Shown: positions 18,940 to 37,310, numbered from the stretch's first letter. The stretch is 64,000 bases of DNA from Minisyncoccota bacterium (GCA_041651395.1 JBAZJI010000001.1:635920-699919), one strand, 5' to 3'. Numbers and translations: made by a program. The notes: a model not told the origin generated them from the sequence alone.

Positions 18940-19389
18940 GTGACCCAGGAGAAAGCCAAGCTTCAGGAACTTTTAAATGACACTGACAATCGCGTAGACA
19001 GCTGGCTTGATGTTGCAAACCGGGTCATTAGATTCTCTGAAGACGCAAAAGAAGCATTCGAAAACAAAGGACTTCAGGCCAAAAAAATCATTCTGGCCGG
19101 CCTCGGTTCGAACCTCCTCTTAAAGGACAAAATACTTGAGATTGACGTACAAAATGCACTTCTGCCCATGCAACTCGTCTCTTCCGGGGCGAAAATAAAA
19201 ACAAACCGGTTAGAACCAGTCAAAGTGAGCCTAAATAAAGAGAAAAGCAGAGCTTTTGGCTCTGCTCATCCCATATGGCTCGCCCTACTCAACGATTTCC
19301 GAACTTTTGACTGGGCAAGCGAATACAAATATCCGACCGTAGTTTTAGACCAAATGAAAGAAATGCTGGCCAAGTACGAGAATGTATAA
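18940..19389 (+). pseudogene. C-terminal remnant of a large serine recombinase (N-terminal ~400 aa missing)
   Basis: LGSNLLLKDKILEIDVQNALLPM...LEPVKVSLNKEKSRAFGSAHPIWL aligns with the C-terminus of the intact recombinase (LFSNPIINGKKVEISYQKAFKMV...FEPPKEPVNKEKSRAFGSAHPIWL). No catalytic domain lies upstream. It only has a GTG start. Confidence 0.6.
19232..19281 (+). repeat. 50-bp direct repeat, left copy (attL of island B)
   Basis: taaataaagagaaaagcagagcttttggctctgctcatcccatatggctc is identical to 36903-36952. Confidence 0.9.
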
Positions 19390-19566
19390 CCCGTTCTTGC
19401 CCCGTGTTTGCCCGTGTGGCGAGCGGTTCGACCGGAGTAAGAGATTTGCACCAATCCAGAAACCCGAAACGATTATGAACGAGTTTTGAGACTTTAAAAC
19501 GATTTGCTTAACTTCGGAAAAGTTAAGCAAATATGACTCCGCTGGACTTGTTCCGAGGGCAAGCGT

Positions 19567-19887
19567 ATGTTCTTGCTTGCTATGGAGGACGATGACATTG
19601 AGGCGATCCTTCGGGACGCTAAAAACATAAGAATGCCACATCGACGCGGATCATTTAATCCGTTATCTTCACTTCCGGAACCAAAAGCCAAGATCAAACA
19701 AGCGATCAAGGAACGAATAAGACTCTTGGTCGGTGCTTATATCTCGCTGGCTGGGTTTGTGGACGATGACGATATCCGGTTTGCCGAGGATAATCCAAAG
19801 TCAAAGAAAACTCGAGCAATATATCTCAAAGTGCTCGAGGATATGGAAACAGCCCAAAAAGAAATGCGAGAGTTTAAGATTTTATAA
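19567..19887 (+). CDS. hypothetical protein
   Basis: 106-aa ORF at the left end of island B, acidic and Lys-rich. No family recognised. Confidence 0.35.
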   Translation: MFLLAMEDDDIEAILRDAKNIRMPHRRGSFNPLSSLPEPKAKIKQAIKERIRLLVGAYISLAGFVDDDDIRFAEDNPKSKKTRAIYLKVLEDMETAQKEMREFKIL

Positions 19888-19901
19888 GTCTTTTTCGCTT
19901 G

Positions 19902-20474
19902 TTAAGCTTCGTCAACGTATTTTGAAATAAATCTTTGTTTTGCAGATTCCCACATTTCATCAGTAGTTAAGATTTTTTCGTATTGATATATTCTTCCTCC
20001 AGCCCCAAAAGCTTTCAAAAACTGATTGAGATATATTCTTGGGTTTACCAGCAAAAACTCATCCTCAATTTTCCAACCTTCAGCCATATCAAAATCATAG
20101 CTAAAGCTGTGTCCGGCCACATTTATCCAACGATGAGCAATCACATTTCTCCACTCGTGAATTCTAGAGGCAACCGTTGAGAACTTTGTATCCGGTGTAT
20201 CACCATCAATAAAGTTTTCCAGAAAGAGTTTATAGCCATCCTCACCACCCTTGTTAAATAAACCGTGTGCAATTGTAAGAGCGATAGAATGAGTTCCTAA
20301 AAACATTAAAGTCGTCTGATAGTTTCCAGTATTATCAAAAACTGTTCGCAACTCATTAATAAAATAATTAGCCATTGAGTTTGTGATCGTCGCAACAACC
20401 TCATACGGTGGATTTTCTGTAAACCTTTTTAATCGTTTTCCCCTTGTCTCTCCTAAATGTGCATTGTTCTTCAT
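19902..20474 (-). CDS. small HEPN-like protein (Rx4H motif)
   Basis: 190 aa with EWRNVIAHRW (nt 20129-20161). Last gene of the tightly packed array. Confidence 0.5.
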   Translation of the reverse strand: MKNNAHLGETRGKRLKRFTENPPYEVVATITNSMANYFINELRTVFDNTGNYQTTLMFLGTHSIALTIAHGLFNKGGEDGYKLFLENFIDGDTPDTKFSTVASRIHEWRNVIAHRWINVAGHSFSYDFDMAEGWKIEDEFLLVNPRIYLNQFLKAFGAGGRIYQYEKILTTDEMWESAKQRFISKYVDEA

Positions 20475-20479
20475 AAAAG

Positions 20480-20992
20480 TTATTTTGATGTAATAAAAAC
20501 ACGTTTTCTCTTGAGTAATAAATAAACAATGCTCAATATCAAAGTTATGCCGACCGGTGGTATCGCATACAGCACGAGATTAGCGATATTGAATAAGATT
20601 GATATTCCGCCATTCAAAATATTAAACAACCACGGCACGAGATAAGAGTAGGAAATGTACATCAGAAATAGCCAGAGTACTGCCTTGATGAAATTATAAA
20701 GCTCCCACATGCCAAAAGCTTTGACCACAATGTCGTGCAGTACTTTGTAAAATTTAATCACGTATAGAAACAAGCCGATCGTACAAAAAGTAAAAGCACT
20801 ATAAAACACCCGGACAAAAATGCTTGGTGCAGACAATGGACTGATTGATTGCCATTGAAACTTAATTCCCAAAACAAAATGCCAGAGTAACAATACAAAA
20901 GCCAAAATCACGTAAGTTGTGGCCGAGCCCACTACCTCCTTAGCGTTTTTTAGCAGAACCTTTTTGTGCCAATTATTGCTTTGCGTTTTCAT
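20480..20992 (-). CDS. four-helix membrane protein
   Basis: 170 aa with about four hydrophobic helices. Its start overlaps the upstream stop by 4 nt. Confidence 0.55.
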   Translation of the reverse strand: MKTQSNNWHKKVLLKNAKEVVGSATTYVILAFVLLLWHFVLGIKFQWQSISPLSAPSIFVRVFYSAFTFCTIGLFLYVIKFYKVLHDIVVKAFGMWELYNFIKAVLWLFLMYISYSYLVPWLFNILNGGISILFNIANLVLYAIPPVGITLILSIVYLLLKRKRVFITSK

Positions 20993-22791
20993 TTTGGTTT
21001 TTCATTTTTCCTGACCAGCGAAAGGCAGATCAATACATGAATGAGACGATTAGCGACATCTTCACCCTCAAAAAGCTTCTTATTTATTCCGTGTGCGAAA
21101 TTGTTTCTGAGATTCCAGCCGACCCTCTCGGTGAGTAATACCCGGAGATAATACTCAACGTTTTCTCCCATAGTTTGAAAGATGCCTTTGATGAGGCCTC
21201 GGCTTAGTAATTTATCAAGGCTAAGAACATCGTAGCCTCCGTCATCGTTAGGCCGAATGTAGGTTTGATTGTTGATACGATATAAATTTCTGACAGCATC
21301 CTCGATGAGCGGGATGCTCAAGCAACATGCGGTGAGATAATCCTTATTCCAAAAAGATGTAAGCAATTTTGAAATGTAATCTTTATCTTCAGGTCTAAAA
21401 ACTGGAGATAAAAACAAAACTTCGGTAAATTGCTCTGGCGTGTATAGCTCGCGTACTTTCTGAAATGCGATTCTCAAAAATACAGCTTGGAAGTGTAGAT
21501 TACGAGAAAAGTTTTCCAAAAGGTGTTTATCGTAGTCATCACTAATTGAACCAAATTTGACGATCGGGTAGCCTTCCTCCGAAGCCATAACGTGACTAGC
21601 CAGATAAGTGATGGGGTGGTTTTTTGCTAAATCGTTTAACTGATCTTCTACTGACTTTTTACGCAAAATAAAATTGACAGCAAGCCTTGCCATCACCTTG
21701 TCCAACGGATCAGAATTGTCTGTGCCGAAAATTGAGGTGATGAATTTATTAATATCCTCGTTTTTGATTTTTACTTCAGTAGAGATTTCATGCATTGCGA
21801 ACTTGCCTCGTTCGCCAAGATTGCTCAATTCATTAACAATTCGTGCTCGTGCGTCTTTTGCGAATTGAAAAGATGCATACTCAAGATAAATATCAATGAG
21901 TTTCTCAAGATAATTACTGATAAGCATTCCATCCGAATTTGCGTACTTATTTTTTCGGTATGATGCCTCGAAATCATCGAGTACTCTTTTTAGGTTGGCT
22001 TCATCCTGATTTGCGGAATAGTAAGGTGCGAGCAGTCGGACTGCACATTCCACGCGCCATGGGTCTGGGTCTTCGGTTGTCATAAGCCGTTTCAGACGAT
22101 CTTCAAGGTCGGTGAGTAATTTCGTTTTATCCTCATCCGAAAGAGTAATCTTCCCAGTCTTATCCAAAACCAGCCACTTAAATGCGTGACCCCAGAGACC
22201 GGGCTTGTCGTCTTCGGCATATTTACCCTCGGTCGCTATGATGCTGTCCTTAAGTTTGTGAATTCGCACACTGTCGTTGATTTGAATAGCTAACCCCAAT
22301 GCACGCTCGAGCTTATCTTTGCAACCTAATCCATCATCAAGACTAGCGACACAAATTTCTATTGCAGAATCTATAACCTTTTGAGCGATTATGAAATCAA
22401 TACTTTTCTTCAAAACAACGGGTTCGAAATCAAATACTAGATCCGAATAACGGTAAGCTAAAATCGGATGCCTGCATTCACCGGCTCGTTTTCTCCAGTA
22501 ATTCAATGTTTCCTCGTCAACCTGTTTGATGCTTGGAAACTCTGTAAACTGACCCTGATCATTTTTCCAAACAATCATAGGCCCGTGGTAGGTTCCCCAA
22601 CCAGTATCTTTAGTCGGATAATGAGCCATAAACTGGAAAGCAATGTACTCGGCTAATTCCTCTTTATCTGTAAGTTTTTCCTGTTTTGCATTCAGAACCC
22701 GTCCAATCTTTTCACCCAACACAAATTCCTCGATCGGCTCGATCTTGTTTTCTAACTCAACAAAATAATCTTGTAACGCTTTTCTGATCAT
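20989..22791 (-). CDS. DUF4209-like protein with C-terminal HEPN-type Rx4H motif
   Basis: 600 aa. The C-terminal GWNLRNNFAHG (nt 21081-21122) is the motif I recall as the DUF4209 signature. Its start overlaps the upstream stop (ATGA). Confidence 0.55.
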   Translation of the reverse strand: MIRKALQDYFVELENKIEPIEEFVLGEKIGRVLNAKQEKLTDKEELAEYIAFQFMAHYPTKDTGWGTYHGPMIVWKNDQGQFTEFPSIKQVDEETLNYWRKRAGECRHPILAYRYSDLVFDFEPVVLKKSIDFIIAQKVIDSAIEICVASLDDGLGCKDKLERALGLAIQINDSVRIHKLKDSIIATEGKYAEDDKPGLWGHAFKWLVLDKTGKITLSDEDKTKLLTDLEDRLKRLMTTEDPDPWRVECAVRLLAPYYSANQDEANLKRVLDDFEASYRKNKYANSDGMLISNYLEKLIDIYLEYASFQFAKDARARIVNELSNLGERGKFAMHEISTEVKIKNEDINKFITSIFGTDNSDPLDKVMARLAVNFILRKKSVEDQLNDLAKNHPITYLASHVMASEEGYPIVKFGSISDDYDKHLLENFSRNLHFQAVFLRIAFQKVRELYTPEQFTEVLFLSPVFRPEDKDYISKLLTSFWNKDYLTACCLSIPLIEDAVRNLYRINNQTYIRPNDDGGYDVLSLDKLLSRGLIKGIFQTMGENVEYYLRVLLTERVGWNLRNNFAHGINKKLFEGEDVANRLIHVLICLSLVRKNEKPK

Positions 22792-23891
22792 AATCTTTTA
22801 TATAAACCAAAACCCGTTGCTAATCCTGACCCCCACTTGTTAGGATCTTGGGTCAATTGGTGAATCTTTTTATTGATAGGATCAAACAAGTGACCACATC
22901 CGAAATCATTTCTTTTGAACTCGTCAGGAATTAGTCCAAGCACAACTGTATAAATCCTTTTTCCAAGAAAACTAATCTTTGACACGAGATTACCATTCTC
23001 TTTGCTAAAAATAACGGTATGACCGATAAAACGCATGTTATCAATTTTTTCATCATAAATAATAGGCTCACTGCCAAGTTCAGCAATCACTTGTTTAACC
23101 GGCAAATCTGATTCTCCAATAATGTAGGATTTGATCACGGAGAAATTTGGATGGAACAAAATATCAGCTCTATTCTCTTGGATGGCACAATGAGAAAAAT
23201 AATTAAATGCGATTTTTGAAATTACTCTGCCAGCATCTGCCCCGACCGTACAATCCATTGAAACTTCAAATTGTTTTTTAGGTCCGTTTTTATCAATTGG
23301 GGCAAATTTTCTTTTACCTTCCTTATAATCAATTCCGAGTTTCTTCAAAATATCTATCGCTTCCTGAAGCGGTCCGTCATCGGTATCACTATTACCTCCG
23401 GTAAATATAGATACATCTTTACTCTGAACACCTGTAAGGAGTTTTTTAATCTCTAAAAATTTCTTTTTATTAAGTTTTTTTAACTCATCAACTAAAAGAA
23501 TTAGATAACCATTGTCACCATATCGTTTTATCTTAATCTGAGGCAAAAGAAAAATCCTCCAATTGTTGTCTTGGTGTTTTAAGAATGGGAACATTTCGTT
23601 AAAAAAGTCGTCTCCCAGTCCAGGGGAAAAAGTCGTTTTTACATTATTACCTCTAATTCTTATCTGGCAACTATTTTGAAAATTAAACATCTGGTAATAG
23701 ATACCTTCTTCGGTGTCTTCTTTAAATTTTGTTTCCAAGACATTAAAGATTTTTGAATTACAATTGTCACACACCCAACCTCTTAGAGTCGGATTATTTT
23801 CAAAAGTACCCATTAACTGCGGAATTACGTGTTCTCGGCCGTTAAAAGTTGCTTCATTTTCTTTTTTATCACAGTAAATGCATCTAGACAT
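22788..23891 (-). CDS. HNH-type nuclease-domain protein with unassigned ~300-aa C-terminal region
   Basis: N-terminal CIYC...EHVIPQLMG...CDNCN, the Cys4/His-Asn pattern of HNH endonucleases. Confidence 0.5.
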   Translation of the reverse strand: MSRCIYCDKKENEATFNGREHVIPQLMGTFENNPTLRGWVCDNCNSKIFNVLETKFKEDTEEGIYYQMFNFQNSCQIRIRGNNVKTTFSPGLGDDFFNEMFPFLKHQDNNWRIFLLPQIKIKRYGDNGYLILLVDELKKLNKKKFLEIKKLLTGVQSKDVSIFTGGNSDTDDGPLQEAIDILKKLGIDYKEGKRKFAPIDKNGPKKQFEVSMDCTVGADAGRVISKIAFNYFSHCAIQENRADILFHPNFSVIKSYIIGESDLPVKQVIAELGSEPIIYDEKIDNMRFIGHTVIFSKENGNLVSKISFLGKRIYTVVLGLIPDEFKRNDFGCGHLFDPINKKIHQLTQDPNKWGSGLATGFGLYKRL

Positions 23892-23898
23892 AAATTTA

Positions 23899-24645
23899 TT
23901 AATACTTCCACTCCTCGTACGACAAAATGAAGCTGTTCAGTTCTTCTTTTATGCCTTTCCACTTCGGGATGTATTTTGCCATTAGGGCGACAAATTTGTC
24001 GCTGTGTTTTTTCTCAATCAAATGTAAAAGCTCGTGGACTACGACATACTCCACGCAGGCAATCGGCTTTTTGGCCAGCTCTAAATTTATCAAGACTCGA
24101 GCTCGCTTGTGATTACAAGTACCCCAGCGAGTCTTCATCTGCTTGATACCCCAATACTTAACCTCTACACCCATTTTCTTTTGCCATTTGGTAATCAGAT
24201 CACCGACAATCACATGCAACTCTTTGCGATACCAGTCCATCATCACTTCTCGACGCTTGATCGCCGGACTCTTTGGTCGAACCTGTAAAATAATCTTGTT
24301 TTTGCCTTTCAAGGTAACAACAGGTGCCTCGTCTTTATAAACCACTTCAAGGCGGTAGCGTTTGCCAAAAAAGTAATGGCTTTCACCGGAGGAATAATCA
24401 CGCTTGGTCTGTCTTTCTTGACCGGTAAATTTGGCTTGCTGTTTCTTAATCCACGGCAGTCTCAAAGCCAAGAGCGTGCGAATAGCATCGTCTTTCATAT
24501 TTGCCGGTGCGGTTACGCGAACCCAACCGTTGGGAGGCAAAACCGAAAGGTGCAAGTTCTTGATCGGCTTGCGAACGACCAGAGCCTCAACACTGCCAAG
24601 TTGTAGATAAGAATTAGTACTCATTTTGATTCTTGATGATCTCAA
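23899..24645 (-). CDS. YgjP-like (DUF45 / M48-type) zinc metallopeptidase associated with type I R-M
   Basis: WGTCNHKRARVLINLELAK...YVVVHELLHLIEKKHSDKF (HExxH). An alternative start at 24624 is possible. Either start overlaps the end of hsdR. Confidence 0.75.
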   Translation of the reverse strand: MRSSRIKMSTNSYLQLGSVEALVVRKPIKNLHLSVLPPNGWVRVTAPANMKDDAIRTLLALRLPWIKKQQAKFTGQERQTKRDYSSGESHYFFGKRYRLEVVYKDEAPVVTLKGKNKIILQVRPKSPAIKRREVMMDWYRKELHVIVGDLITKWQKKMGVEVKYWGIKQMKTRWGTCNHKRARVLINLELAKKPIACVEYVVVHELLHLIEKKHSDKFVALMAKYIPKWKGIKEELNSFILSYEEWKY

Positions 24646-27637: not shown

Positions 27638-27641
27638 ATTG

Positions 27642-28877
27642 TTATTTTGTAAGTAATCTTATTTTGCCTGTTAAAAGTGTTTGCATCATTCCTTGTTTAA
27701 TATTTTGGTATTTGGTAAGTTGCGATTCTAGTTTTTCAATTTCGGTGTCCATGTCGGAGAGGACAGTGGCGATAGCGACTTGTTCTGGCTCTTCCGGCAT
27801 TACAATCTCCAAATCTAGTAAATCTTTCCCTTGCAAATGGTGAATTGTTATTCCTTTTGTTTTTTGAGCAATATCATTTTTATAGATATGTGTTAAGCAA
27901 TAAGCAAGAAAAATTGAATCGTACACATTTCGTAGTTTACGAATAATATTAATGTCGCCACCAAGTAAAATATTATCAGACAGCAACGCTGATGCTTTTG
28001 CTAAATCAATACCAGTTGTAGTAGTTGATCCCGGGATCAAAATATCACCCTTTTTTGAAAGAACACCTTCTTCAAAATCGGTCTTGCTGTAAACATCCTT
28101 TATTATTTCAAGATAAGTTGTGAATAATTCGCCATATAAAATACACGGATATTTTCCCGAGAAAGATAATTTTCCTTTTGATAATCCCTGTCCCTTAGTA
28201 GTCTGTGCAATTTCTCCTAATTTTTTTACTTCCCATTTACCGCTAGAACCGGCGAGGCGACGCTTGCCTGTAAGTAATTCCTGCATCGCACCCTGTTTGA
28301 TATTCTTTTTCTTTTGGATTAGTTTTTCGGTTTTTGTAATCAGTGCATCTGTATCGGATAGGATAGAGATAATAGCAGTTTGTTGAGGCTTGGTAGGACA
28401 AATAAATTTAGTACTCTTTAAAATACTATTGTACAACCGTTGAATTGTTCCACCTTCAGTATTGTATTTTACAATTTGAAAAACATAATACAGATAACCA
28501 TTGGAAATCAGTTCTTCGTTGTTATCAATCCAGACTATATTTGAATCCTGAAAATATGCCGGTATCCCATCATAAACTATCGTCCTACCTATCGTGCCAG
28601 CTGCAGAAATTAATACATCGCCTTTTTTGGGAAATGAAAACCTGTGTCGGTAGTTATCGTATAAATCCTGTGATATATAAGCATCAGCTTCTTTTCCAAA
28701 TGTTCCAATTTTATAAAATGGAATTATACCCACATCTTTAGTTTCGTGATTAAAAATTCGCCTACACATTTTTATTTCTCCAAGATCGCCTAGCTTTTTG
28801 ACATCCCAATCCGCCGGAATCATGCCGATCTCGGTTTGTTTGTATCCTGATGGAATTTTTTGCGTTGCGGTCGTCAT
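27642..28877 (-). CDS. hsdS: type I restriction-modification specificity subunit
   Basis: Two target-recognition halves, each ending in the conserved spacer (QQTAIISILSDTDALI...IKQGAMQELLTGK and EQVAIATVLSDMDTEI...IKQGMMQTLLTGK). Confidence 0.85.
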   Translation of the reverse strand: MTTATQKIPSGYKQTEIGMIPADWDVKKLGDLGEIKMCRRIFNHETKDVGIIPFYKIGTFGKEADAYISQDLYDNYRHRFSFPKKGDVLISAAGTIGRTIVYDGIPAYFQDSNIVWIDNNEELISNGYLYYVFQIVKYNTEGGTIQRLYNSILKSTKFICPTKPQQTAIISILSDTDALITKTEKLIQKKKNIKQGAMQELLTGKRRLAGSSGKWEVKKLGEIAQTTKGQGLSKGKLSFSGKYPCILYGELFTTYLEIIKDVYSKTDFEEGVLSKKGDILIPGSTTTTGIDLAKASALLSDNILLGGDINIIRKLRNVYDSIFLAYCLTHIYKNDIAQKTKGITIHHLQGKDLLDLEIVMPEEPEQVAIATVLSDMDTEIEKLESQLTKYQNIKQGMMQTLLTGKIRLLTK

Positions 28878-28879
28878 AA

Positions 28880-31309
28880 TTATTTCAATTTAAATCCCAT
28901 CTTAGCGAGATGACCCTCAACCTTTTTGGTAAGCGTTTCCACTTCGCTGGTAACCTCGGCCATTGGCTCGGCATAACGCTCGGCGAGTTCTTTAACCCTG
29001 CCGGTGAGGGTCTGGGAGAGACGGTCTATTTCGCCCAAAACTCGAGCAGACAATTCCTCCATCCATTTATTCTCAACAACCAAGGTTTTGATTTCTACTT
29101 CAGTAAGAGTCGGATATTTAACCAGCACTTTTTTCTCCAAGTCTTTCTCAGCGTCTTTGATCGCTTTCTTGGTGTCGGCTTCTTTTTCAAACAAAGCCGA
29201 ATACTTTTCAAGCACGGCAAGCTCGTCGGCATCGTCTGCACTGTTTTTGACTTCTTTGATGCGTTTAAGCACGCTGACCTTGCTGATTTTGTCGTTATCA
29301 ATCACTTCTTCAAGCAAACCCTCCTCACCACCGTGTTCGTCTTTGAGCGAATCCATATCAACGCCGACCTGTTCAAGGATAGCGTTTAAGTCCTCAAGAG
29401 CTTTCTGTTCTTTGGCAAAATAAGTTTTGATAGCCAAAGAGATCGGGATAAGACGACCTTCAAGACCAACAAGCCCATCGATGTCTTTTTTCTTGCCTTT
29501 GTTTTCTTTCTGTAAGCGAATAATTTCCTTGCCAGCTTTCCAACCGTCAATGGTAATAATATGCGTGTCGTCCTGCATCACTTCTTCCCAGTAGGCCATT
29601 AGGTGCTGATAGATATCATACTTATCAACCAGTTTGAGATTGGCACAAGCCAAAAGCAGATCGCTGGCAATTTTTTGAATGACAGCCTTGGGATGATTAG
29701 TGGTATCAATAGTCTTGAGAAAATCAGTTGACGCTTTTTGCCATTTTGCAAAAGTGTTCAAGGTTTGTTTTCTGAAAGTTTCAAACTCCGGATGAGTTAG
29801 GATTGTCTTTTTTATTTCGTCCGAGGCGATAAGCAACTCGCTGTAACCTTTTCGGCCGTTGGCTTTGAAAAGAGATTTTTCAAGCGTTGGACAAATATCC
29901 CAGTAAGCGGACAAAGCAGAAATGTCAGCGTCAGGGATACCGCCCTTGAGATGAGCTTCAATGTCTTGGATATCTTCCAGCTCTTGCGTATCGATATAAC
30001 GTGGGAGATTGAGGTTATATTCGTTTTTCTTTATTTCATCATTGGCAACGAAACGAGAAAACTTGGCGGTTTCAAGTTTGCCATTCCAAGTGTCCACAAT
30101 TTTGCGGATATCCTGCTCACGCAAACGATTCTTATTGCCGTCTTTCACAAAACCTTTGGAGGCATCGATCATAAAGATGCCTTTGCGATCACTAGCTCCA
30201 GCTTTATCTAAAACGATAATACACGCCGGAATGCCCGTGCCATAGAAAAGGTTAGCTGGTAAGCCGATGATACCTTTGATATATCCTCGCTCAATAATAT
30301 TTTTGCGGATTTCCGCTTCAGCATTGCCACGGAACAAGACACCGTGAGGCAAAATGACCGCACCGGTCCCAGTGCTCTTGAGCGACTTTAAAATATGCAA
30401 AAGAAAAGCAAAGTCGCCATTTTTCTTGGGAGGAATACCGAAGCCATCAAAACGACCGTATTGGTCGTGATCCGGATCAAAGCCATTACGCCAAGACTTA
30501 TAAGAAAAAGGCGGATTGGCGACAACATAGTCAAAAGTTTTGAGAGCACTGTGTTCGGTGAAAAGTGGAGTAGAAAGCGTGCTCTGGCCTTTTTTAATTT
30601 CCGCCTCGGGCTTGCCATGAAGCCACATGTTAAGAGTTGCCAGTCCAGCGGTGGCGTTATCAAGCTCTTGTCCGTATATAGTAATCTTTTGAGCTTCCTC
30701 GGCGACTTTCAAAAGAAGCGAACCGGAACCGCAAGTCGGATCGTAGACCGTGTGCATACCGGTATCGGCTTTGTTGGCTTCAATTACTTTGGCCATAATG
30801 CGAGAAACTTCGGCCGGAGTATAAAATTGACCTTTGCTTTTTCCTGACTCAACGGCAAAGTGCTTCATCAAGTATTCGTATGCATCGCCCAAGAGATCAT
30901 CGCCCTCGGCACGATTCTTGCTAAAGTCTAAATCTGGATTTTCAAAGATAGCGATAAGATTGGAAAGACGGTCCTGCATATCTTTGCCTTTACCGAGCTT
31001 GTCCTCGTCGTTAAAATCAACAGCATCAATGACACCTTGCAAACCGTTGGCTTCGGCAAGTTTATTCAAAACTTTATTGATACCATCACCGATATCTGGT
31101 TTGCCTTTGAGCTTTATCAAATCAGAAAAACTGCCACCAGTCGGAATGTCCACGAGTTGATTGGCCTTGCCTGCATATTTATCCGAGACATAGCGGACGA
31201 ACAAAAGCACGAGGACATAATCCTTGTACTGGGAGGCGTCCATACCGCCACGGAGTTCGTCGCATCCTTGCCAGATAGAGCTATAGAGTTGAGATTTTTT
31301 GATTGCCAT
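28880..31309 (-). CDS. hsdM: type I R-M N6-adenine DNA methyltransferase subunit with ~300-aa C-terminal extension
   Basis: Motif I DPTCGSGSLLL and motif IV VVANPPFS. At 809 aa it is much longer than the ~500 aa I recall for typical HsdM. Confidence 0.9.
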   Translation of the reverse strand: MAIKKSQLYSSIWQGCDELRGGMDASQYKDYVLVLLFVRYVSDKYAGKANQLVDIPTGGSFSDLIKLKGKPDIGDGINKVLNKLAEANGLQGVIDAVDFNDEDKLGKGKDMQDRLSNLIAIFENPDLDFSKNRAEGDDLLGDAYEYLMKHFAVESGKSKGQFYTPAEVSRIMAKVIEANKADTGMHTVYDPTCGSGSLLLKVAEEAQKITIYGQELDNATAGLATLNMWLHGKPEAEIKKGQSTLSTPLFTEHSALKTFDYVVANPPFSYKSWRNGFDPDHDQYGRFDGFGIPPKKNGDFAFLLHILKSLKSTGTGAVILPHGVLFRGNAEAEIRKNIIERGYIKGIIGLPANLFYGTGIPACIIVLDKAGASDRKGIFMIDASKGFVKDGNKNRLREQDIRKIVDTWNGKLETAKFSRFVANDEIKKNEYNLNLPRYIDTQELEDIQDIEAHLKGGIPDADISALSAYWDICPTLEKSLFKANGRKGYSELLIASDEIKKTILTHPEFETFRKQTLNTFAKWQKASTDFLKTIDTTNHPKAVIQKIASDLLLACANLKLVDKYDIYQHLMAYWEEVMQDDTHIITIDGWKAGKEIIRLQKENKGKKKDIDGLVGLEGRLIPISLAIKTYFAKEQKALEDLNAILEQVGVDMDSLKDEHGGEEGLLEEVIDNDKISKVSVLKRIKEVKNSADDADELAVLEKYSALFEKEADTKKAIKDAEKDLEKKVLVKYPTLTEVEIKTLVVENKWMEELSARVLGEIDRLSQTLTGRVKELAERYAEPMAEVTSEVETLTKKVEGHLAKMGFKLK

Positions 31310-31314
31310 ATATT

Positions 31315-32217
31315 TTATTTTTCATTGCGAGAGTTATAAATAAAATCCTCGCCGATTTTCCAAACACCTTTCTCTCGGAAAGCCGAAATGTTTTGACGAC
31401 GAGCGGCGTTGATCATGCCCGGGGCAGATAGTTTGTTTATTTTCGTATACTCAGACAAAGTGATAACCTTTTGACCTTTAAGGTATGTGATTCTCTTGCT
31501 CAATGATTCCATCAAAGCCAGAGCGATAACTTTTTCCATGTTTTTGGCATTTTTTTCATCACGATATTCAGCAAATGACTTGTAGTATTCTTTCTTTTCG
31601 CGATCACGGATAATAATTATCGGAAAACCAAGACGCTGAAGCTGGAAACAAATAAGCACGCGACCAATACGGCCGTTGCCGTCATTGAACGGATGGACGG
31701 TTTCAAAATCCAAATGGAATTTAGCGATCTTATCCAAAAAGTAATTTGAGAGGTCGCCGGTGTATTCTGTGATTATCGCCTCAATCATTTTCTCAACATG
31801 TTCCGGTGCTGGGGCGACATGGGTCCCGACACGGACATACTCGCCAAGCTTTCTAAAACGACCGGCAATTTTGTCATCGATGCCACCGATAAGCATTTGA
31901 TGTAAAAGCAGGATCGTCTCTTTGTTGGTTTCCGTTTCTTTGCTCTTGTTGCGAATGTAGCCGATGACTCGAGCCAAATTTTTGGCCTCATAGACCTCAC
32001 GCAAGGAAACATCTCGGGAGACCTCCATATCCAAAAGGATCTTCTCAGTTTCTTTGAGAGTTAGGGTGGAGTTTTCGATAGCGTTGGAGTTGTAGACGCT
32101 TTCTGGCACTTCGGCCTCGTCAATCATCACCAAAAGGGACTCCTTGCCTTTGCGGAGGGTGTCATATTCGCTTTTTAGAGCTGTAAGCCTGTCTTTTATA
32201 GGTTTTGTTATAGCCAT
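31315..32217 (-). CDS. Fic/DOC family protein
   Basis: Canonical Fic motif HPFNDGNGRIGR. Lies 5 nt upstream of hsdM. Confidence 0.85.
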   Translation of the reverse strand: MAITKPIKDRLTALKSEYDTLRKGKESLLVMIDEAEVPESVYNSNAIENSTLTLKETEKILLDMEVSRDVSLREVYEAKNLARVIGYIRNKSKETETNKETILLLHQMLIGGIDDKIAGRFRKLGEYVRVGTHVAPAPEHVEKMIEAIITEYTGDLSNYFLDKIAKFHLDFETVHPFNDGNGRIGRVLICFQLQRLGFPIIIIRDREKKEYYKSFAEYRDEKNAKNMEKVIALALMESLSKRITYLKGQKVITLSEYTKINKLSAPGMINAARRQNISAFREKGVWKIGEDFIYNSRNEK

Positions 32218-32375
32218 ATGTTTTGTTAAAATTATAAGGTTAGTATAAGCGATTTCAACTTAAAAGTCAATATTTAGTGAATGGAGACCATATATTGCTT
32301 CCTATTCACTAGATTATATGCTACAATATCCCTAAAGGCAAGTATAATGAGTTTTGAGCGCTACCAGCTCATAAG

Positions 32376-33074
32376 ATGAAAATGACTATGAAAATGAAAA
32401 AGGTCACTTTGACCACCAAACATAAATTCAATATCAAGCAGTCTGTGGGAGTAAACACTGCCTATCATTTCTCGCTGGGTGTAGTTAAAAATATTGTTGT
32501 AATTGCTTTAAAAAACAATGGCGTTCAGAATCCGGACGAGATCGTAAATAAACATGATACTGAATTTGCCGAATTAAAAGATAGATTAAATAAAACCGAA
32601 GCCTCGTTTGATAATTACAAAAAAGAAACCGATAAAACCATCGCCGATTTAAAAAGCGAATTGAAAGAATTGACCAAGCAAAGTCTTATTCAAATCGGCC
32701 GAGAAATAGCCGAAGGTTTCTACGATCAGAGCCAAAAGATACGGTCCAAACAGAAAGAAAATAAAATCAGAGAAACCTTACTCTGCCTCTCCACGGACGG
32801 CGACTTATATTTGGCATCCAATAAACAAAAATGTTATCCGATGAGTAAAGAGAAAATGCGTGAGAAACTTATAAAAGTTTTATGCTCGGCCAAGGGTTAT
32901 ATCAAGACGGCAGAACTGGCCGAAATGGTCGGCACTACGAATCAGGCGATCCGGAATTCTAAACTGGAAATAAATAATAAATCTAAAAATCGGATCGGCA
33001 TTGATGAATTGATTATCGGTCGTGACGGCAACGGTTACAGACTAAATCCGAAATACAAAATCAAAATATTATAG
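32376..33074 (+). CDS. hypothetical protein with coiled coil and C-terminal HTH-like segment
   Basis: 232 aa. The central region is K/E-rich with heptad character. The C-terminal IKTAELAEMVGTTNQAIRNSK is HTH-like. Confidence 0.45.
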   Translation: MKMTMKMKKVTLTTKHKFNIKQSVGVNTAYHFSLGVVKNIVVIALKNNGVQNPDEIVNKHDTEFAELKDRLNKTEASFDNYKKETDKTIADLKSELKELTKQSLIQIGREIAEGFYDQSQKIRSKQKENKIRETLLCLSTDGDLYLASNKQKCYPMSKEKMREKLIKVLCSAKGYIKTAELAEMVGTTNQAIRNSKLEINNKSKNRIGIDELIIGRDGNGYRLNPKYKIKIL

Positions 33075-33108
33075 CGTAATAGTCGGTGTAGTTAATAACT
33101 TTAACAAG

Positions 33109-33134
33109 AGAGCCTGAAATAGGGCTCTTTTTTG
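33109..33134 (+). terminator. intrinsic terminator after 32376..33074
   Basis: Hairpin agagcc-tgaaatag-ggctct followed by tttttt. Confidence 0.5.
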
Positions 33135-33220
33135 TTAGCGAACTACACCCGAACATTATTCCAAGAGATAGGTGCTGATTGGCAAAATGTAAATGTGTGA
33201 GAGTAAAAAAATGAAATGAT

Positions 33221-33472
33221 ATGCCAATCAAACAAAGTGAAAGTTTCAAGACCGCCGATCTGGCATTGATCGCGGTGCTTTTATTATTAATGCCCGAATC
33301 TCTTGAGGTCGTGGATCGGACAAATCCACATAAGGTCCTCTTTGGATTTAAAACTGACCGCAAGCTCGAAAAGCTTATGGACAGTTTTTGGAAACGAGAG
33401 CTTGTGGTCGAACCTCAAGCGTTCTTTAACCAAATCAAAATCGCCAAAGCCAGGATCTATGTCCACGAATAA
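33221..33472 (+). CDS. DUF5659-like small protein
   Basis: FKTADLALIAVLLLL.PESLEVVDRTNPHKVLFGF resembles the DUF5659 pattern I recall from mobile-element small proteins. Confidence 0.4.
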   Translation: MPIKQSESFKTADLALIAVLLLLMPESLEVVDRTNPHKVLFGFKTDRKLEKLMDSFWKRELVVEPQAFFNQIKIAKARIYVHE

Positions 33473-33474
33473 AT

Positions 33475-33684
33475 ATGAAGTTAAAACCAGAAACGCTGGA
33501 AAAACTCCGAGCGATTCTCAAAAAAGACTTTGGCCAAGAAGTGAATGATCAAGACCTTCACGATATCGCATTCAACCTCGTGAATTATTACGACGCTTTG
33601 TCGCGATTTTACTGGGAGGATATCACAAGCGGTCGAAAGCTTATAGAACCATATGACACAGTACCCGAGCGACAAACCACATAA
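33475..33684 (+). CDS. hypothetical small protein
   Basis: 69-aa ORF starting 2 nt after the previous stop. Confidence 0.4.
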   Translation: MKLKPETLEKLRAILKKDFGQEVNDQDLHDIAFNLVNYYDALSRFYWEDITSGRKLIEPYDTVPERQTT

Positions 33685-34228
33685 GATCAGAGATTATCGC
33701 GAATTGCCGTTTGCTTATCAAGATAAGCCGGCTTTGCGGTACATGCGACAACAATGGCTCGATAAGCACATTAGCATTGATGCCTACCGGAATCTCCGGA
33801 ATATGTATCTGGCTTTGACTGAGATTGCCTCCAACAAAGCCAGTCAAACCATAGAGGCATCAAATAAAACGCTCTTGATTTACTCAGGCCTCAAAGACTG
33901 GCGAACGATTAAGAATTGTTTGTCCAAGCTTGAGGAGTGGGCTTTTATCGCAATCACGAAAACTCGGGGCGAGGATGCCAAGTTCAAGCCCCGAGGTATC
34001 ACTTTGCTTTCCGTCCTACATCTGACGCAGAGTGGAAACCAATCAGCATCAAAAGCCGGACGGCATAGCACGCAGACTGCCTCCGATGCAGAAGATATAG
34101 AAGGTAAGGGATTAAAAGAAATTAAAGAAAATAATAAAGAAATTAACGGCCGGTCCAAGAATTTAAAACTCTTGGCGGAGGCCAGAGCCAAACTTGTAGC
34201 CAAAATGTCGATTCCAACTAACAAATAA
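33653..34228 (+). CDS. hypothetical protein (possible wHTH / replication-type)
   Basis: 191-aa ORF that overlaps the upstream ORF by 32 nt. No motif recognised with confidence. Confidence 0.4.
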   Translation: MTQYPSDKPHKIRDYRELPFAYQDKPALRYMRQQWLDKHISIDAYRNLRNMYLALTEIASNKASQTIEASNKTLLIYSGLKDWRTIKNCLSKLEEWAFIAITKTRGEDAKFKPRGITLLSVLHLTQSGNQSASKAGRHSTQTASDAEDIEGKGLKEIKENNKEINGRSKNLKLLAEARAKLVAKMSIPTNK

Positions 34229-34252
34229 AATTATTAATCATTAATCAAACTT

Positions 34253-34459
34253 ATGAGCAAAATGAAATCACAAACACCAAGGGAAAAAGCGGATAAATTA
34301 TTCAAGAAAAATCTCACCAAAGCGGCCAAAACTTTAATCTCTCTTTTGGACAGCAAGGACGAGACAATAAGATTGTCGGCCACCAATTACATTATCAAGA
34401 GAGTAACCGAACAGCCGACTATTATCGTGATTGATAAGAGCGAAAAAAATTCTACTTAA
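34253..34459 (+). CDS. hypothetical small protein
   Basis: 68-aa ORF in the co-directional module. Confidence 0.35.
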   Translation: MSKMKSQTPREKADKLFKKNLTKAAKTLISLLDSKDETIRLSATNYIIKRVTEQPTIIVIDKSEKNST

Positions 34460-34471
34460 CTCTACTTTTTT

Positions 34472-35044
34472 ATGCCAAAAATTAAACATCTATCCGAATA
34501 CCATAAAGTAGCATTTGAGCTTAAATATAAAGGCCTTTCTTATCAAAACATTGCTGAGATTTTGAATAAGAGAGGGCCAAAAAGTAGAAAAGCCAAGTTT
34601 ACTGTTCAAAGCGTAAAAGATTGGTTTAAAGAATCCGGAACACTGGCGAGTGATTATGAGCACTACGCCAACGAAATGGACGACATTCATGCCGAGACTA
34701 TGGAGATTGTTCGTCGAGCCGGTGCGAGAGTCAGGGAGGAAAATTTTCGTCTAGCTAATGAAATGCTTGTGGCTCTTATGGGGAGTTCCAATGATGCCGT
34801 TAAATTAGCTGCAATCAAAGAGATACTGGATCGAGTCGAAGGCAAGCCGAAAGAAAACATCATGCTTAATAATCAAGATATCTACGAATTACCGCCTCAA
34901 GAACGCTGGAAACTTATCCCTTATGAAATCAAGCTCCGCCTATCGAGAGATCAATATTCCAAGGAAACATCCGATGCAATATTTAATTGGGCGGAAACCG
35001 GAAAAACTAAACCAGCCAAACCAAGGCCGGATAACCTAAATTAA
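34472..35044 (+). CDS. HTH-containing hypothetical protein
   Basis: The N-terminal YKGLSYQNIAEILNKRG is HTH-like. 190 aa. Confidence 0.45.
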   Translation: MPKIKHLSEYHKVAFELKYKGLSYQNIAEILNKRGPKSRKAKFTVQSVKDWFKESGTLASDYEHYANEMDDIHAETMEIVRRAGARVREENFRLANEMLVALMGSSNDAVKLAAIKEILDRVEGKPKENIMLNNQDIYELPPQERWKLIPYEIKLRLSRDQYSKETSDAIFNWAETGKTKPAKPRPDNLN

Positions 35045-35344
35045 CGGCCATAACGGCAACAATCCGCAACAAACGGCAACATTTTGACCAAAAATCACTT
35101 ACACCAACTCACACTAACTAACACCAAAAAAGAGAAAGTCTAAAACCTACAATGACCAGAATAACCAGCAAACTAGCGGATAATTACAGTTATTTACAGT
35201 TGGTTGCTGTAAAACTGGTGAAAGTGTCCGATTTACAATGTTTAGAGCTGTGGGCAACTGACGCTTAGCTTGTTCCCAAAATTAGTATAGGGTGTGTCGT
35301 GGTACGAAAAGTCGAATTCGAACCTTAGTAAAATTAACAAAATT

Positions 35345-36961
35345 ATGACTATGACAATGCAAAACGAAAATGAATCAATGCGAGCCGTAGGATATGCCCG
35401 TGTCTCCTCCAAGGATCAGGAGGACACCGGCTATTCACTACCGGCTCAAGAAAAACTTTTACACGATTATGCCGATAGAAACGGTTTTGATCTGGTAAAA
35501 GTTTTTGCCATTCAAGAATCAGCGGCCGGAAAAATCCAACGAAAGATATTTCACGAAATGTTGGACTATGTGACCAAAGCCAAAATAAATACGGTCTTTG
35601 TGGAAACCACTGACCGCTTAACCCGTAACTTCGCCGATGTGCCGGTAATTGACGAATGGATACTGGCGGATGAAAGACACACCATTCATCTGGTAAAAGA
35701 AGGCTGTACCCTGCATAAAGATTCCAAGTCGCACGAATGGTTTATGTGGCGAGTTAAAGTGGCCACGGCCGAATATTATATCCGTCTGCTTTCCGAAAAT
35801 GTGAAAAAGGGACAAAAAGAAAAGCTGGCTCAAGGTTGGCTACCAAGCAAACCACCACTGGGATACCAAACTACTGGCGAGAAAGGACATAAAATTCACA
35901 TCATTGATCCGGAAAAATCTCCGCTGGTCAAAAAGATGTTTGACCTTTACGCCTCCAACCGCTATTCAACCAAAAAGCTGGCCGATGAAATGCACAAACT
36001 TGGTATGCGGTCTCGGGGAGGTAATAAAGTTAGTCACTCACGAGTCCATCAACTTCTGGGTGATCCATTTTATTACGGAATGAATCGCTGGAACGGAAAA
36101 GTCGCTCAAGGCGGACACGAACCGCTTATAACCAAAGAATTATTCATGCGGTGCCAAGACATAATGCATAGCAACGGCACGCCGAAGTACAACAAGCACA
36201 ATCCATTATTTAAAAATGTCTTCCACTGCGAGGAATGCAAAGGCCGGATAACTTGGGAGATACAAAAAGGCCACTGGTATGGCCACTGCAATCATTATAA
36301 AAACTGCCAGCAGAAAGAATGGGTCAAACAAGAGAACATTGACCAGCAGGTAATGGAAAACATCGAGCAGTTAAGCTCAAAACACAACGAGGCCATAGAG
36401 AATATGCTGACTTGGGTCCAAGAGGCACTCAAGGAAAGCCATGGCGAGGAGATAGAATTCAGACAAAAAGCTACCGGTGAGCTTGAGCGACGCTACCAAG
36501 TAGCCACACAAAGACTGGACAAGATATACGATGACAAGATAGACGGCAAGATTAGCGAGGACTTCTACCAGAAAAAGTACCAGCAATACAAGATTGAACA
36601 AGAGGAAGTGCTGGACGGACTGAACAAGCACAAAAATGCCAACCTCAAGTATTACGATATGGGGTCAACCTTTTTACAAATGGCTAAAGAGGCAAGGAGA
36701 ATTTATTTGAACCGAAGCACGATCGAAATGGTCGACGACAAGAAACAACTTTTGTCCCTTTTATTTTCGAACCCCATAATAAATGGCAAAAAAGTTGAGA
36801 TTTCATACCAGAAAGCCTTTAAAATGGTATTTGAACGAGTATCACAGATGTTGGGAGAAAAGTTAGACGAAAATACAACATTCGAACCGCCAAAAGAGCC
36901 CGTAAATAAAGAGAAAAGCAGAGCTTTTGGCTCTGCTCATCCCATATGGCTCCGCGAGTAG
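35345..36961 (+). CDS. large serine recombinase (integrase)
   Basis: Catalytic VGYARVSSKDQ, a recombinase domain (GWLPSKPPLGYQ), and a zinc ribbon (CEECKGRITW...HCNHYKNC). The stop codon TAG (36959-36961) lies inside tRNA-Asn on the other strand. The ATG at 35345 is preferred over the GTG at 35294. Confidence 0.9.
   Translation: MTMTMQNENESMRAVGYARVSSKDQEDTGYSLPAQEKLLHDYADRNGFDLVKVFAIQESAAGKIQRKIFHEMLDYVTKAKINTVFVETTDRLTRNFADVPVIDEWILADERHTIHLVKEGCTLHKDSKSHEWFMWRVKVATAEYYIRLLSENVKKGQKEKLAQGWLPSKPPLGYQTTGEKGHKIHIIDPEKSPLVKKMFDLYASNRYSTKKLADEMHKLGMRSRGGNKVSHSRVHQLLGDPFYYGMNRWNGKVAQGGHEPLITKELFMRCQDIMHSNGTPKYNKHNPLFKNVFHCEECKGRITWEIQKGHWYGHCNHYKNCQQKEWVKQENIDQQVMENIEQLSSKHNEAIENMLTWVQEALKESHGEEIEFRQKATGELERRYQVATQRLDKIYDDKIDGKISEDFYQKKYQQYKIEQEEVLDGLNKHKNANLKYYDMGSTFLQMAKEARRIYLNRSTIEMVDDKKQLLSLLFSNPIINGKKVEISYQKAFKMVFERVSQMLGEKLDENTTFEPPKEPVNKEKSRAFGSAHPIWLRE
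36903..36952 (+). repeat. 50-bp direct repeat, right copy (attR of island B)
   Basis: Identical to 19232-19281. The last 6 nt overlap the 3' end of tRNA-Asn (CCA, discriminator, and 2 nt of acceptor). Confidence 0.9.
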
Positions 36962-37021
36962 GACTCGAACCTACAACCCTCTCGTTAACAGCGAGACGCT
37001 CTACCATTGAGCTATCGCGGA
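36947..37021 (-). tRNA. tRNA-Asn (anticodon GTT), CCA encoded
   Basis: Hand-folded cloverleaf: acceptor tccgcga/tcgcgga, D arm gctc-aatggta-gagc, anticodon arm tctcg-ctGTTaa-cgaga, T arm gtagg-ttcgagt-cctac, discriminator G, CCA. Confidence 0.9.
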
Positions 37022-37246
37022 ATATATTTTACTCATGCGAGACTCCGCCGTTTGGCGGATATCGCGGAATATTTACCTCGCCTAGATAGGCGGGGAAAAG
37101 AAAAGAACTCGTCGCTAAAAGCAACAGTAATAATATAGCATATCTGCCAATCCATTCAAGCCCTTGCCCTACTCTCGCTTAAAAGAGTTGCTAGTTTTAC
37201 CTGCAAATCCAATGACAAAATCCGATAATCGCTGATTCGCTTTATA

Positions 37247-37275: not shown

Positions 37276-37310
37276 ATATTTATTAACAATATAATACAAG
37301 GAGGAAAGTG

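Follow-up and report, generated by a model that had tools for sequence, protein, structure and literature searches.

Until now, a change in the C-terminal tail of a recombinase upon integration had been known solely from tyrosine integrases, that of phage Mx8 among them. The stretch of Paceibacterota (Patescibacteria) DNA analysed here, which is 64,000 nucleotides (nt) long and is referred to as the window, contains at positions 19282-36952 a 17.7-kb integrative defence island, which is inserted at the 3' end of a tRNA-Asn gene and mobilised by a large serine recombinase, here designated RecB. The reading favoured here, to which a probability of roughly 0.8 may be given, is that the crossover of the RecB island takes place inside the recB gene and that the tail of the enzyme is exchanged with the integration state.

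The closest described system is phage Mx8, whose target is reportedly also a tRNA gene. Its attachment site, attP, lies inside int, and integration gives this gene a new 3' end, with an altered C-terminus and a changed activity and specificity of the product (review PMC6070905, citing Tojo 1996 and Magrini 1999). The Mx8/Mx9 integrases IntP/IntX are like RecB in having attP within the integrase's coding sequence and in acquiring a new C-terminus on integration. However, Int of Mx8 belongs to the tyrosine recombinases and has arm-type sites and an excisionase, while RecB is a large serine recombinase with short half-sites; moreover, only about 35 codons are exchanged in the RecB island, and the codons preceding the crossover double as the tRNA end and terminator. 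The first-pass annotation of the window, made from the sequence alone, had named the split integrases of the SSV type as the precedent, a place that belongs to Mx8 IntP/IntX instead. SSV1-type archaeal integrases likewise have attP inside the integrase gene, which is altered by integration, but this cuts the tyrosine integrase gene into two separated parts, whereas in RecB the catalytic and DNA-binding body stays whole and only the tail is exchanged. In mycobacteriophages BPs and Brujita attP lies inside a coding region and the integration state sets the C-terminus of a regulatory protein (PMC4557955). There the remodelled gene is a repressor rather than a recombinase, the enzyme is a tyrosine integrase, and the tail is a degradation tag, whereas no such tag is evident in the RecB tail (...AKYENV).

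In the canonical large serine integrases (A118/LI, Bxb1, phiC31, SPbeta) attP is intergenic, and the sequence of the enzyme is the same whatever the integration state, unlike that of RecB. They share with RecB the layout of Resolvase, Recombinase and zinc-ribbon/coiled-coil domains and, with the RecB family, a short site with an inner GGAY motif and an outer motif shifted by 5 bp between the arms of phage and host type (PMC3783163). Textbook enzymes of this class do not perform recombination of the attP x attR type (PMC3783163), whereas the RecB family builds arrays through such junctions. Transfer RNA genes accounted for 14/297 of the serine-integrase targets in a survey of 2168 genomes, in which such use is described as rare and 'not reported previously' (PMC7192596), and a large family of tRNA-targeting enzymes is documented here for a class that was thought to hardly use tRNA genes. 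The islands recognised by Islander/TIGER resemble the RecB island in their insertion at a tRNA 3' end, restoration of the gene, tRNA-proximal integrase and tandem accretion at one tRNA, but they have tyrosine integrases and a long tRNA fragment as the identity block, whereas the RecB island has only (G)CTC/TGGCTC in common with its target and itself supplies G-CCA and the terminator.

Full-text literature searches found no description of a serine integrase with the crossover inside its own open reading frame (ORF). The RecB island is a serine-integrase island with Mx8-like self-remodelling (in gene logic only, as it does not belong to the Mx8 family), in which the recombinase-side arm of the site, or P arm, at the same time provides the tRNA with its 3' end and a terminator, and which also builds arrays. 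Serine integrases are valued in genome engineering, their direction being set by simple protein-DNA geometry and a separate factor; a reaction that edits the C-terminus of its own enzyme would be a new coupling of integration state to enzyme form.

The island and the two copies of its cassette

The principal features are listed below, with coordinates of the window and the strand in brackets.

18940-19281 (+): relic of a large serine recombinase ('RecA-type') older than and different from RecB, reduced to its C-terminal ~115 codons, the last 50 nt of which are the left cassette (BLASTP; similarity to L034/L015)
19232-19281 (+): left copy of the cassette, the P arm of the relic (exact match to 36903-36952)
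19280-19281 (no strand): inferred crossover dinucleotide TC, equal to GA at tRNA positions 71-72 on the other strand (68 junctions, +1 bases, GGAY spacing)
19282-19389 (+): predicted P' half-site (about 19282-19306, ...GATTTCCGAAC...) and 35-codon tail segment with stop (P'-matrix scan; tails of L054, L010 and L002)
35345-36961 (+): RecB, intact large serine recombinase of 538 aa as called publicly, the ORF being open from 35294 (Pfam; exact protein P0121)
36903-36952 (+): right copy of the cassette, RecB's own P arm; its minus strand gives G71-A72-G73-CCA and a terminator hairpin (36938-36916) with a U-tract (terminator scan, fold)
36947-37021 (-): target gene tRNA-Asn(GTT), whose T-arm, together with the 3' strand of the acceptor, makes up the predicted B' half-site (ARAGORN, Rfam, B' consensus from 36 distinct tRNA arms)

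The two copies of the cassette form a 50-bp direct repeat with 50/50 identical positions and no further matching base directly on either side. Extended leftward, the similarity is weaker (88% over 72 nt), identity falling to about 64% over the next 22 nt and to about 30% at the protein level beyond. An exact repeat of this length cannot have arisen by chance in 64 kb. The tRNA-Asn gene is intact (ARAGORN; 73.8 bits in Rfam), and its final 6 nt (GAGCCA) are covered by the right copy; tRNA positions 71-76 come from the cassette, and an intact tRNA-Asn is regenerated at the insertion point of the island. The tRNA contributes only 6/50 bases of the repeat, the other 44 being recombinase codons and terminator, so that there is no displaced tRNA fragment. 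The possibility that these 44 bases are host DNA, namely the tRNA's own terminator, was ruled out, since the cassette is invariant beside 36 different tRNA bodies and native sites carry unrelated terminators; the empty native tRNA-Asn genes of related genomes and other species have only (G)CTC in common with the cassette.

The first-pass annotation had regarded this repeat as the ends of the element, with the right copy inside the 3' end of the recombinase gene and running 6 nt into tRNA-Asn. Its coordinates, the exactness of the repeat over a distance of 17.7 kb and the position of the right copy all stand (ARAGORN, Rfam, ORF). However, the repeat represents neither a target duplication nor a plain pair of attL and attR; two elements are stacked here, one of them now a relic, and the repeat is their P-arm cassette.

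The ORF holding the left copy (18940-19389) includes both the relic and the tail. The relic is 35% identical to residues 435-553 of RecB (BLASTP), reaching 100% only across the last 16 residues, and no N-terminal part of this recombinase was present in any upstream frame. L034/L015 encode, at a tRNA-Asn, a full-length recombinase with 74-79% identity to the relic and 31% to RecB. As the left flank is a relic ending in the cassette, the island adjoins what is left of an earlier element of its own kind, and its left junction is of the P(relic)-P' type, that is, attP-like rather than a canonical attL. The in-frame tail reported earlier after the left copy was correctly placed (ALLNDFRTFDWASEYKYPTVVLDQMKEMLAKYENV-stop, 19282-19389, same frame), but it is 35 rather than 36 aa long (36 codons with the stop), and the left copy ends the relic of a second recombinase.

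RecB is identical to the public protein P0121, which comes from a metagenome-assembled genome of Candidatus Paceibacterota and is encoded there on a contig of 957,374 bp. It contains the Pfam domains Resolvase (PF00239, E = 4.6e-22) and Recombinase (PF07508, E = 1.1e-18), together with a weak Zn_ribbon_recom match that is below the cutoff (E = 0.0055). In a 52-sequence alignment the R-V-S-S catalytic motif is nearly invariant and the Cys residues at 295, 298, 315 and 321 are conserved, while the AlphaFold2 model has long helices at 329-455. In the integrated state the C-terminus reads ...NKEKSRAFGSAHPIWL-RE-stop, as had been proposed, the final two codons and the stop being antisense tRNA.

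Read on the tRNA strand, the cassette is GAGCCA-UAUGGGAUG-AGCAGAGCC-AAAA-GCUCUGCU-UUUCUCUUUAUUU, which comprises G71-A72-G73-CCA, a 9-bp hairpin and a U-tract and is terminator-like according to a simple scan and folding. Close relatives retain the hairpin by fully compensatory changes, with completely different stems:

RecB (100% identity): stem AGCAGAGCC / GCUCUGCU, encoded peptide SRAFGSA
P0002 (88% identity to RecB): stem AACAUCAGC / GCUGGUGUU, encoded peptide TPAFADV
P0011 (76% identity to RecB): stem AACGGACGC / CGUCCGUU, encoded peptide NGRFASV

Conservation of the hairpin in spite of the different stems and peptides suggests that the structure rather than the peptide is maintained, in agreement with the disorder predicted by AlphaFold2 for the cassette-encoded residues 518-535. 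Integration puts the whole island between the tRNA and its native terminator, for which the element is predicted to supply an intrinsic replacement. One 50-nt stretch would thereby have three roles, as recombinase codons, as a predicted binding arm of the recombinase, and as a tRNA 3' end with terminator.

Many of the tRNA-Asn targets in this family (L016 8562-8954 and the right flanks of L028, L029, L030, L035, L058, L063 and L065) are interrupted in the anticodon loop, between ...GGTTA and CAC..., and are missed by ARAGORN. The position of these breaks matches that of the group I introns reported at position 35/36 of Patescibacteria tRNA-Asn (PMC13011429), and Rfam detects Intron_gpI in L016. 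In addition, GC-rich inserts of ~120-340 nt occur in otherwise AT-rich DNA in L001 (12780-12960) and rightward of the cassette in L002, L026, L042 and L047, where they separate the next feature from the cassette or from a partial 3' end of a tRNA; they match no Rfam family and may represent a small mobile or structured element.

Position of the crossover and geometry of the half-sites

A scan of JGI metagenome contigs with the 24 nt closing the repeat returned 65 loci, in all of which the breakpoint lies directly after ...CATATGGCTC (...TGGCTC), giving 68 junctions. To the right of the breakpoint there are either antisense tRNA 3' ends (36 distinct, mostly of tRNA-Asn and a few of tRNA-Gln) or open tails (12 distinct). 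An invariant cassette beside varying tRNA bodies means that the cassette travels with the element. The earlier proposal of an attachment site inside the 3' end of the recombinase gene is borne out by these junctions, which place the crossover within the 3' end of the ORF, and the 50-bp identity is unlikely to be explained purely by gene homology without recombination at its right edge, this edge being the breakpoint in all 68 cases.

In the window, L069 and L010, the three cases in which both junctions of a single element are visible, these junctions disagree at the +1 base, and the exchanged dinucleotide must consequently lie to the left of the breakpoint; a crossover dinucleotide straddling it (-1/+1) is ruled out by the discordant +1 bases of these three arrays. 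The distance from the breakpoint to the inner GGAY is 11 bases in six different left arms and 9 bases in the right arms; the dyad would accordingly fall between the two final shared bases (-2/-1), TC. The crossover most likely falls within (G)CTC, TC being favoured by motif symmetry together with the discordant +1 bases.

The tRNA arms have the consensus N8-GGAtTCGAACC and the tail arms N7-TGGAc-N4-TtaGAAC. GGA occupies positions 9-11 in both arm types, while GAAC is found at 15-18 in the 36 tRNA arms and at 20-23 in the 12 tail arms. In serine integrases the motif contacted by the zinc-ribbon domain (ZD) is situated 5 bp further out in attP than in attB (PMC3783163). The 5-bp shift of GAAC matches this rule, suggesting that the tRNA T-arm is the B' half-site and that the first eight tail codons are the P' half-site; the attB (tRNA T-arm) and P' motifs of the RecB family are defined in this way. 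The conserved tail peptide D-x-F-R-T is the translation of GAY-NNN-TTC-MGA-ACN, and the 'DFRT' motif of the tail coincides with the predicted P' DNA-binding site. Scanning the window with the P' matrix gave a sole strong match, at 19282 (score 29; next best 12.9), and no further att sites or left end of the older element.

Four loci (L012 4249-4272, L025 4244-4267, L043 and L046) contain 24-25 nt GGCTCTGCTCATCCCATATGGCTC without recombinase homology on the left and without a tRNA or tail on the right, and these may be orphan half-sites or extreme relics.

Exchange of the tail and its alternative explanations

The comparison of homologue C-termini that the first-pass annotation had proposed was made on the 120 best full-length homologues, which are 46-96% identical to RecB and all from Patescibacteria where named, and both long-tail and short, tRNA-stop forms exist among them. 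Read-through into antisense tRNA, with the T-loop signature ...DSNxxP, occurs in ~44/120, a stop within three codons of the crossover in ~27/120, and a P'-type tail in ~36/120 (about 30%). The P'-type tails include x4-DFRTxxW... sequences homologous to the 19282-19389 segment of the window, e.g. AWRDDFRTFDWVNAIPCPEESIAQIRQLL and ACWDRFRTFDWEKCYDIAELLLREAKNL; the segment that had been taken for the lost continuation of RecB after PIWL is a conserved C-terminal tail of the RecB family. Within the cluster of proteins at least 90% identical to RecB at least 8 different C-termini are present (RE, RG, RGLDSNQRPSD, DGWDSNPRP..., GVWDTIG..., PHWQAFMSLKW..., AIQSDFANCDW... and RMLVDVRTCI).

A close sibling of the island, L010, encodes at a tRNA-Asn a recombinase 98% identical to RecB, and its backbone matches window positions 19276-19532, 33179-34151 and 35248-37029. 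At its far end, 12.4 kb away, the same tail type (ALLNQFRTFDWADEYKYPTVVLSQMNQLLAECREG) is located on the stump of a third recombinase lineage, which has only TGGCTC in common with the cassette. Judged from these alignments, the tail belongs to the element. Further copies of the window's tail type were found in L054 and L002, and all four copies are exactly 35 codons long. In codons 10-35, which lie past the ~25-bp half-site, the proportions of synonymous (pS) and nonsynonymous (pN) differences are 0.70 and 0.18 (pN/pS 0.26), with zero stops in frame, while four of the five other frames have pN/pS of 0.64-2.0 and the antisense frame sharing third positions has 0.31 but contains a stop. Differences are distributed over codon positions 1/2/3 as 42/20/73. 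The 35-codon tail is coding and under purifying selection. Yet in all four loci it is joined to dead recombinase fragments, and selection must therefore act in another state, most obviously the free fused form; the long form is probably of importance while the element is free. A helix pattern, W...PE...Q..LL, recurs in the tails of relatives that are only 46-50% identical. In the AlphaFold2 model of RecB with the tail (mean pLDDT, the predicted local distance difference test, 78.9) the tail is predicted as three helices (pLDDT 71-81).

On the favoured reading, which is built on comparison of the loci, the site of the free element would be situated within recB, its P arm consisting of the last ~16 codons up to ...PIWL and its P' arm of the first ~8 codons of the 35-codon tail. 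Integration would join the P arm to the B' arm of the tRNA (T-arm/acceptor), shortening RecB to RE-stop and leaving the tail stranded 17.7 kb away at the opposite end of the element; excision would restore RecB with its tail as an in-frame fusion. The island would have entered the junction of an earlier related element rather than a virgin site, the earlier recombinase surviving as the 115-codon relic. Such an entry would account for the 50-bp repeat flanking the island and for the present location of the tail on a dead gene fragment.

Stacked arrays are common in the RecB family. Junctions of a recombinase with a P'-type tail occur within chromosomes, upstream of a second element ending in its own recombinase at tRNA-Asn, in L023, L024/L033 and L069/L070; in L069/L070 a distance of 19,091 bp separates the two cassettes and the recombinase upstream is intact, while the window, L010, L054 and L055 have the same layout with a decayed upstream enzyme. 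These layouts indicate that newcomers enter at or beside the junction of the resident, whose enzyme then gains the tail of the newcomer, and imply that P-B' junctions would be used as targets; the enzymes may be permissive, or homologous recombination may play a part where the cassettes are identical. A 19-kb element 99.97% identical to that of L069 is present in another genome, in L071 (reverse complement, 2187-2509), where its first 322 nt (P' site, tail and spacer) are replaced by unrelated DNA, a loss that would immobilise it. L071 had been considered as a virgin attL and was rejected, being the same element with a left boundary 322 nt inside, i.e. a rearrangement. In L024 (300-373), L033 (2865-2938) and L053 (9745-9818), a tRNA-Arg(TCT) gene is located 0.2-1 kb inside the left end of the elements downstream of the recombinase-tail junction.

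The RecB-specific junction of an excised circle would read ...AAAGAGCCCGTAAATAAAG...CATATGGCTC followed directly by GCCCTACTCAACG, or equally ...GAACCGCCAAAAGAGCCCGTAAATAAAGAG...CATATGGCTC joined to GCCCTACTCAACGATTTCCG, and the site predicted after excision would be the relic-specific ...GAACCAGTCAAAGTGAGCCTAAATAAAGAG...CATATGGCTC joined to CGCGAGTAGGACTCGAACC. A single candidate for the circle came up, L067 (from P0130), which follows the order of the predicted junction (33247-36957 followed by 19197-19868), but the remainder of this contig, retrieved via its HsdR protein, reads rec1, element 2, rec2 and tRNA-Asn and identifies it as a tandem array. Neither of the long-tail contigs L142 and L143 contains a tRNA or overlaps at its termini, and IMG/VR yielded only recombinase relatives of <=42% identity. 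These distant relatives (L080-L138) are very often located at the extreme end of the contig, as would be expected if prophage predictions stop at the junction of recombinase and target. An exact look-up of the host flank protein (37308-38135) gave no match to an empty version of the window locus, empty tRNA-Asn sites being found only in other species. Thus, neither the circular junction nor the empty site proposed in the first-pass annotation was recovered.

Several observations weigh against the favoured reading or against a strict regulatory role of the tail. Neither an excised circle nor a post-excision site was seen for the window element among the metagenome contigs and IMG/VR. The left arm can be called neither clearly P-type nor clearly B-type, as its distal motif does not cleanly fit either spacing. 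Entry into a P-B' junction is an attP x attR-like and hence non-canonical reaction. The L034/L015 recombinase closes with almost the same 50 nt as the cassette, and the copies in L034 (4063-4122), L015 and the window are nearly identical although the recombinases are only 31% identical; this suggests cassette exchange or gene conversion between lineages. Integrated enzymes bear arbitrary ends of 2-45 aa, upstream enzymes of arrays bear the tail of the neighbour, and tail length varies from ~10 to 51 aa across the family.

The last group of observations equally favours the main rival to a regulatory role, which accepts the anatomy described above and holds that the tail is a neutral by-product: the P' site merely falls in a coding region, any C-terminus works, and directionality is provided by a separate factor or is uncontrolled. 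This explanation has close to an even chance of being correct. In its favour, the ends of integrated forms are whatever the antisense strand of the tRNA happens to encode, and the tails differ greatly in sequence as well as in length; the P' DNA motif TTCMGAAC coincides with D-x-F-R-T, the best-conserved part of the tail, and a low-confidence linker of ~18 residues separates the tail from the body of the enzyme in the AlphaFold2 model. No directionality factor was identified in the present analysis. On the other hand, the low pN/pS, fixed length and absence of stops in codons past the half-site, at a synonymous divergence of ~0.7, are difficult to reconcile with neutrality, as are the retention of the helix pattern in distant relatives and the location of all four window-type tails on dead relics, which implies selection in the fused free form.

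A regulatory role of the tail swap resembling that of Mx8 IntP/IntX is plausible but, on balance, less likely than not. An equally speculative extension is that the exchange could act as a self-encoded sensor of state, the free element making a long form whose ~35-aa helical tail is tuned for integration and the integrated copy beside the tRNA making a tail-less form with a different activity or directionality, possibly in place of a separate directionality factor. It would be the equivalent, among serine recombinases, of the 'reversible covalent modification of its own gene' described for Mx8; linked to it is the suggestion that each integration leaves a better landing site, composed of a recombinase arm and a tRNA arm, than a virgin tRNA. 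If so, the stacking of elements in arrays, as well as the mixing of tails and cassettes among lineages, would be accounted for.

Two recombinase genes with identical 50-bp ends could have produced the window copy by homologous recombination or gene conversion, the repeat then being gene homology, but this is quite unlikely. The left copy does lie within a homologous recombinase relic, the exchange could have fallen anywhere in the 50 identical bases, and this origin would avoid the non-canonical site-specific reaction. However, an identity profile that falls abruptly from 50/50 is not that of ordinary gene homology, there is one right-edge breakpoint in 68 junctions, and the relic of L010 carries the same tail while sharing only 6 nt, too short for homologous recombination, which favours site-specific exchange. 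Least probable of all is that the island is an immobile fossil with a functionless tail ORF and repeat, since the missing circle and empty-site variants of the window locus, the decay of the neighbouring older element and the frequency of relics in the family are outweighed by a full-length RecB, by recombinases at least 90% identical at many different tRNA-Asn genes with varied cargo, which indicate recent mobility, by a tail ORF that is intact and under purifying selection, and by a P' site that is the single strong match in the window.

Cargo and neighbouring genes

Between the tail and recB the island consists of defence genes flanked by two backbone modules, as listed below (R-M, restriction-modification; HTH, helix-turn-helix).

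19567-19887 (+): conserved 106-aa ORF, the left-end backbone module (73% nt identity to the ORF after the tail in L067/L069; no Pfam match)
19902-32217 (-): anti-phage defence cargo, made up of two ORFs without matches and the genes of the next five lines (Pfam, PADLOC)
20989-22791 (-): PDC-S39/DUF4209 (Pfam, PADLOC)
22788-23891 (-): HNH protein (Pfam, PADLOC)
23899-24645 (-): YgjP peptidase (Pfam, PADLOC)
24614-31309 (-): type I R-M system, HsdR/S/M (Pfam, PADLOC)
31315-32217 (-): Fic/PDC-S04 (SoFic) (Pfam, PADLOC)
32376-35044 (+): right backbone module upstream of the recombinase, encoding proteins of 232 aa, 83 aa (DUF5659), 69 aa, 191 aa, 68 aa and 190 aa (HTH/sigma70_r4-like) (Pfam)

According to PADLOC the cargo is mostly anti-phage systems (type I R-M, PDC-S39 and PDC-S04/SoFic), and the island lacks phage structural genes. 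The right backbone module has 77-81% nt identity with those of L010, L067 and L068, while sibling elements carry other R-M systems, Qat and Dcm/Vsr/MORC-like genes. RecB-type elements thus carry defence systems to tRNA-Asn and stack them there, in genomes as small as those of Patescibacteria.

Genes for a BglII-like restriction enzyme, a LexA-peptidase-methyltransferase fusion and a 1975-aa Cap4-nuclease/NACHT protein are located immediately to the left of the relic. The last of these (10272-16199, minus strand) has an N-terminal Cap4-type nuclease and a NACHT/STAND NTPase and no PADLOC match, and is probably a defence gene remaining from an older island. The fusion (16292-17890, plus strand) is a 532-aa protein combining a LexA DNA-binding domain, an S24 peptidase and an N6/N4 DNA methyltransferase; its gene is convergent with that of the BglII-like restriction endonuclease (17870-18544, minus strand), and the pair may constitute a restriction-modification system under SOS-style control. 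On the right side of the tRNA, at 39134-39712, a 159-nt unit is repeated four times in tandem (63-73% identity) inside overlapping ORFs.

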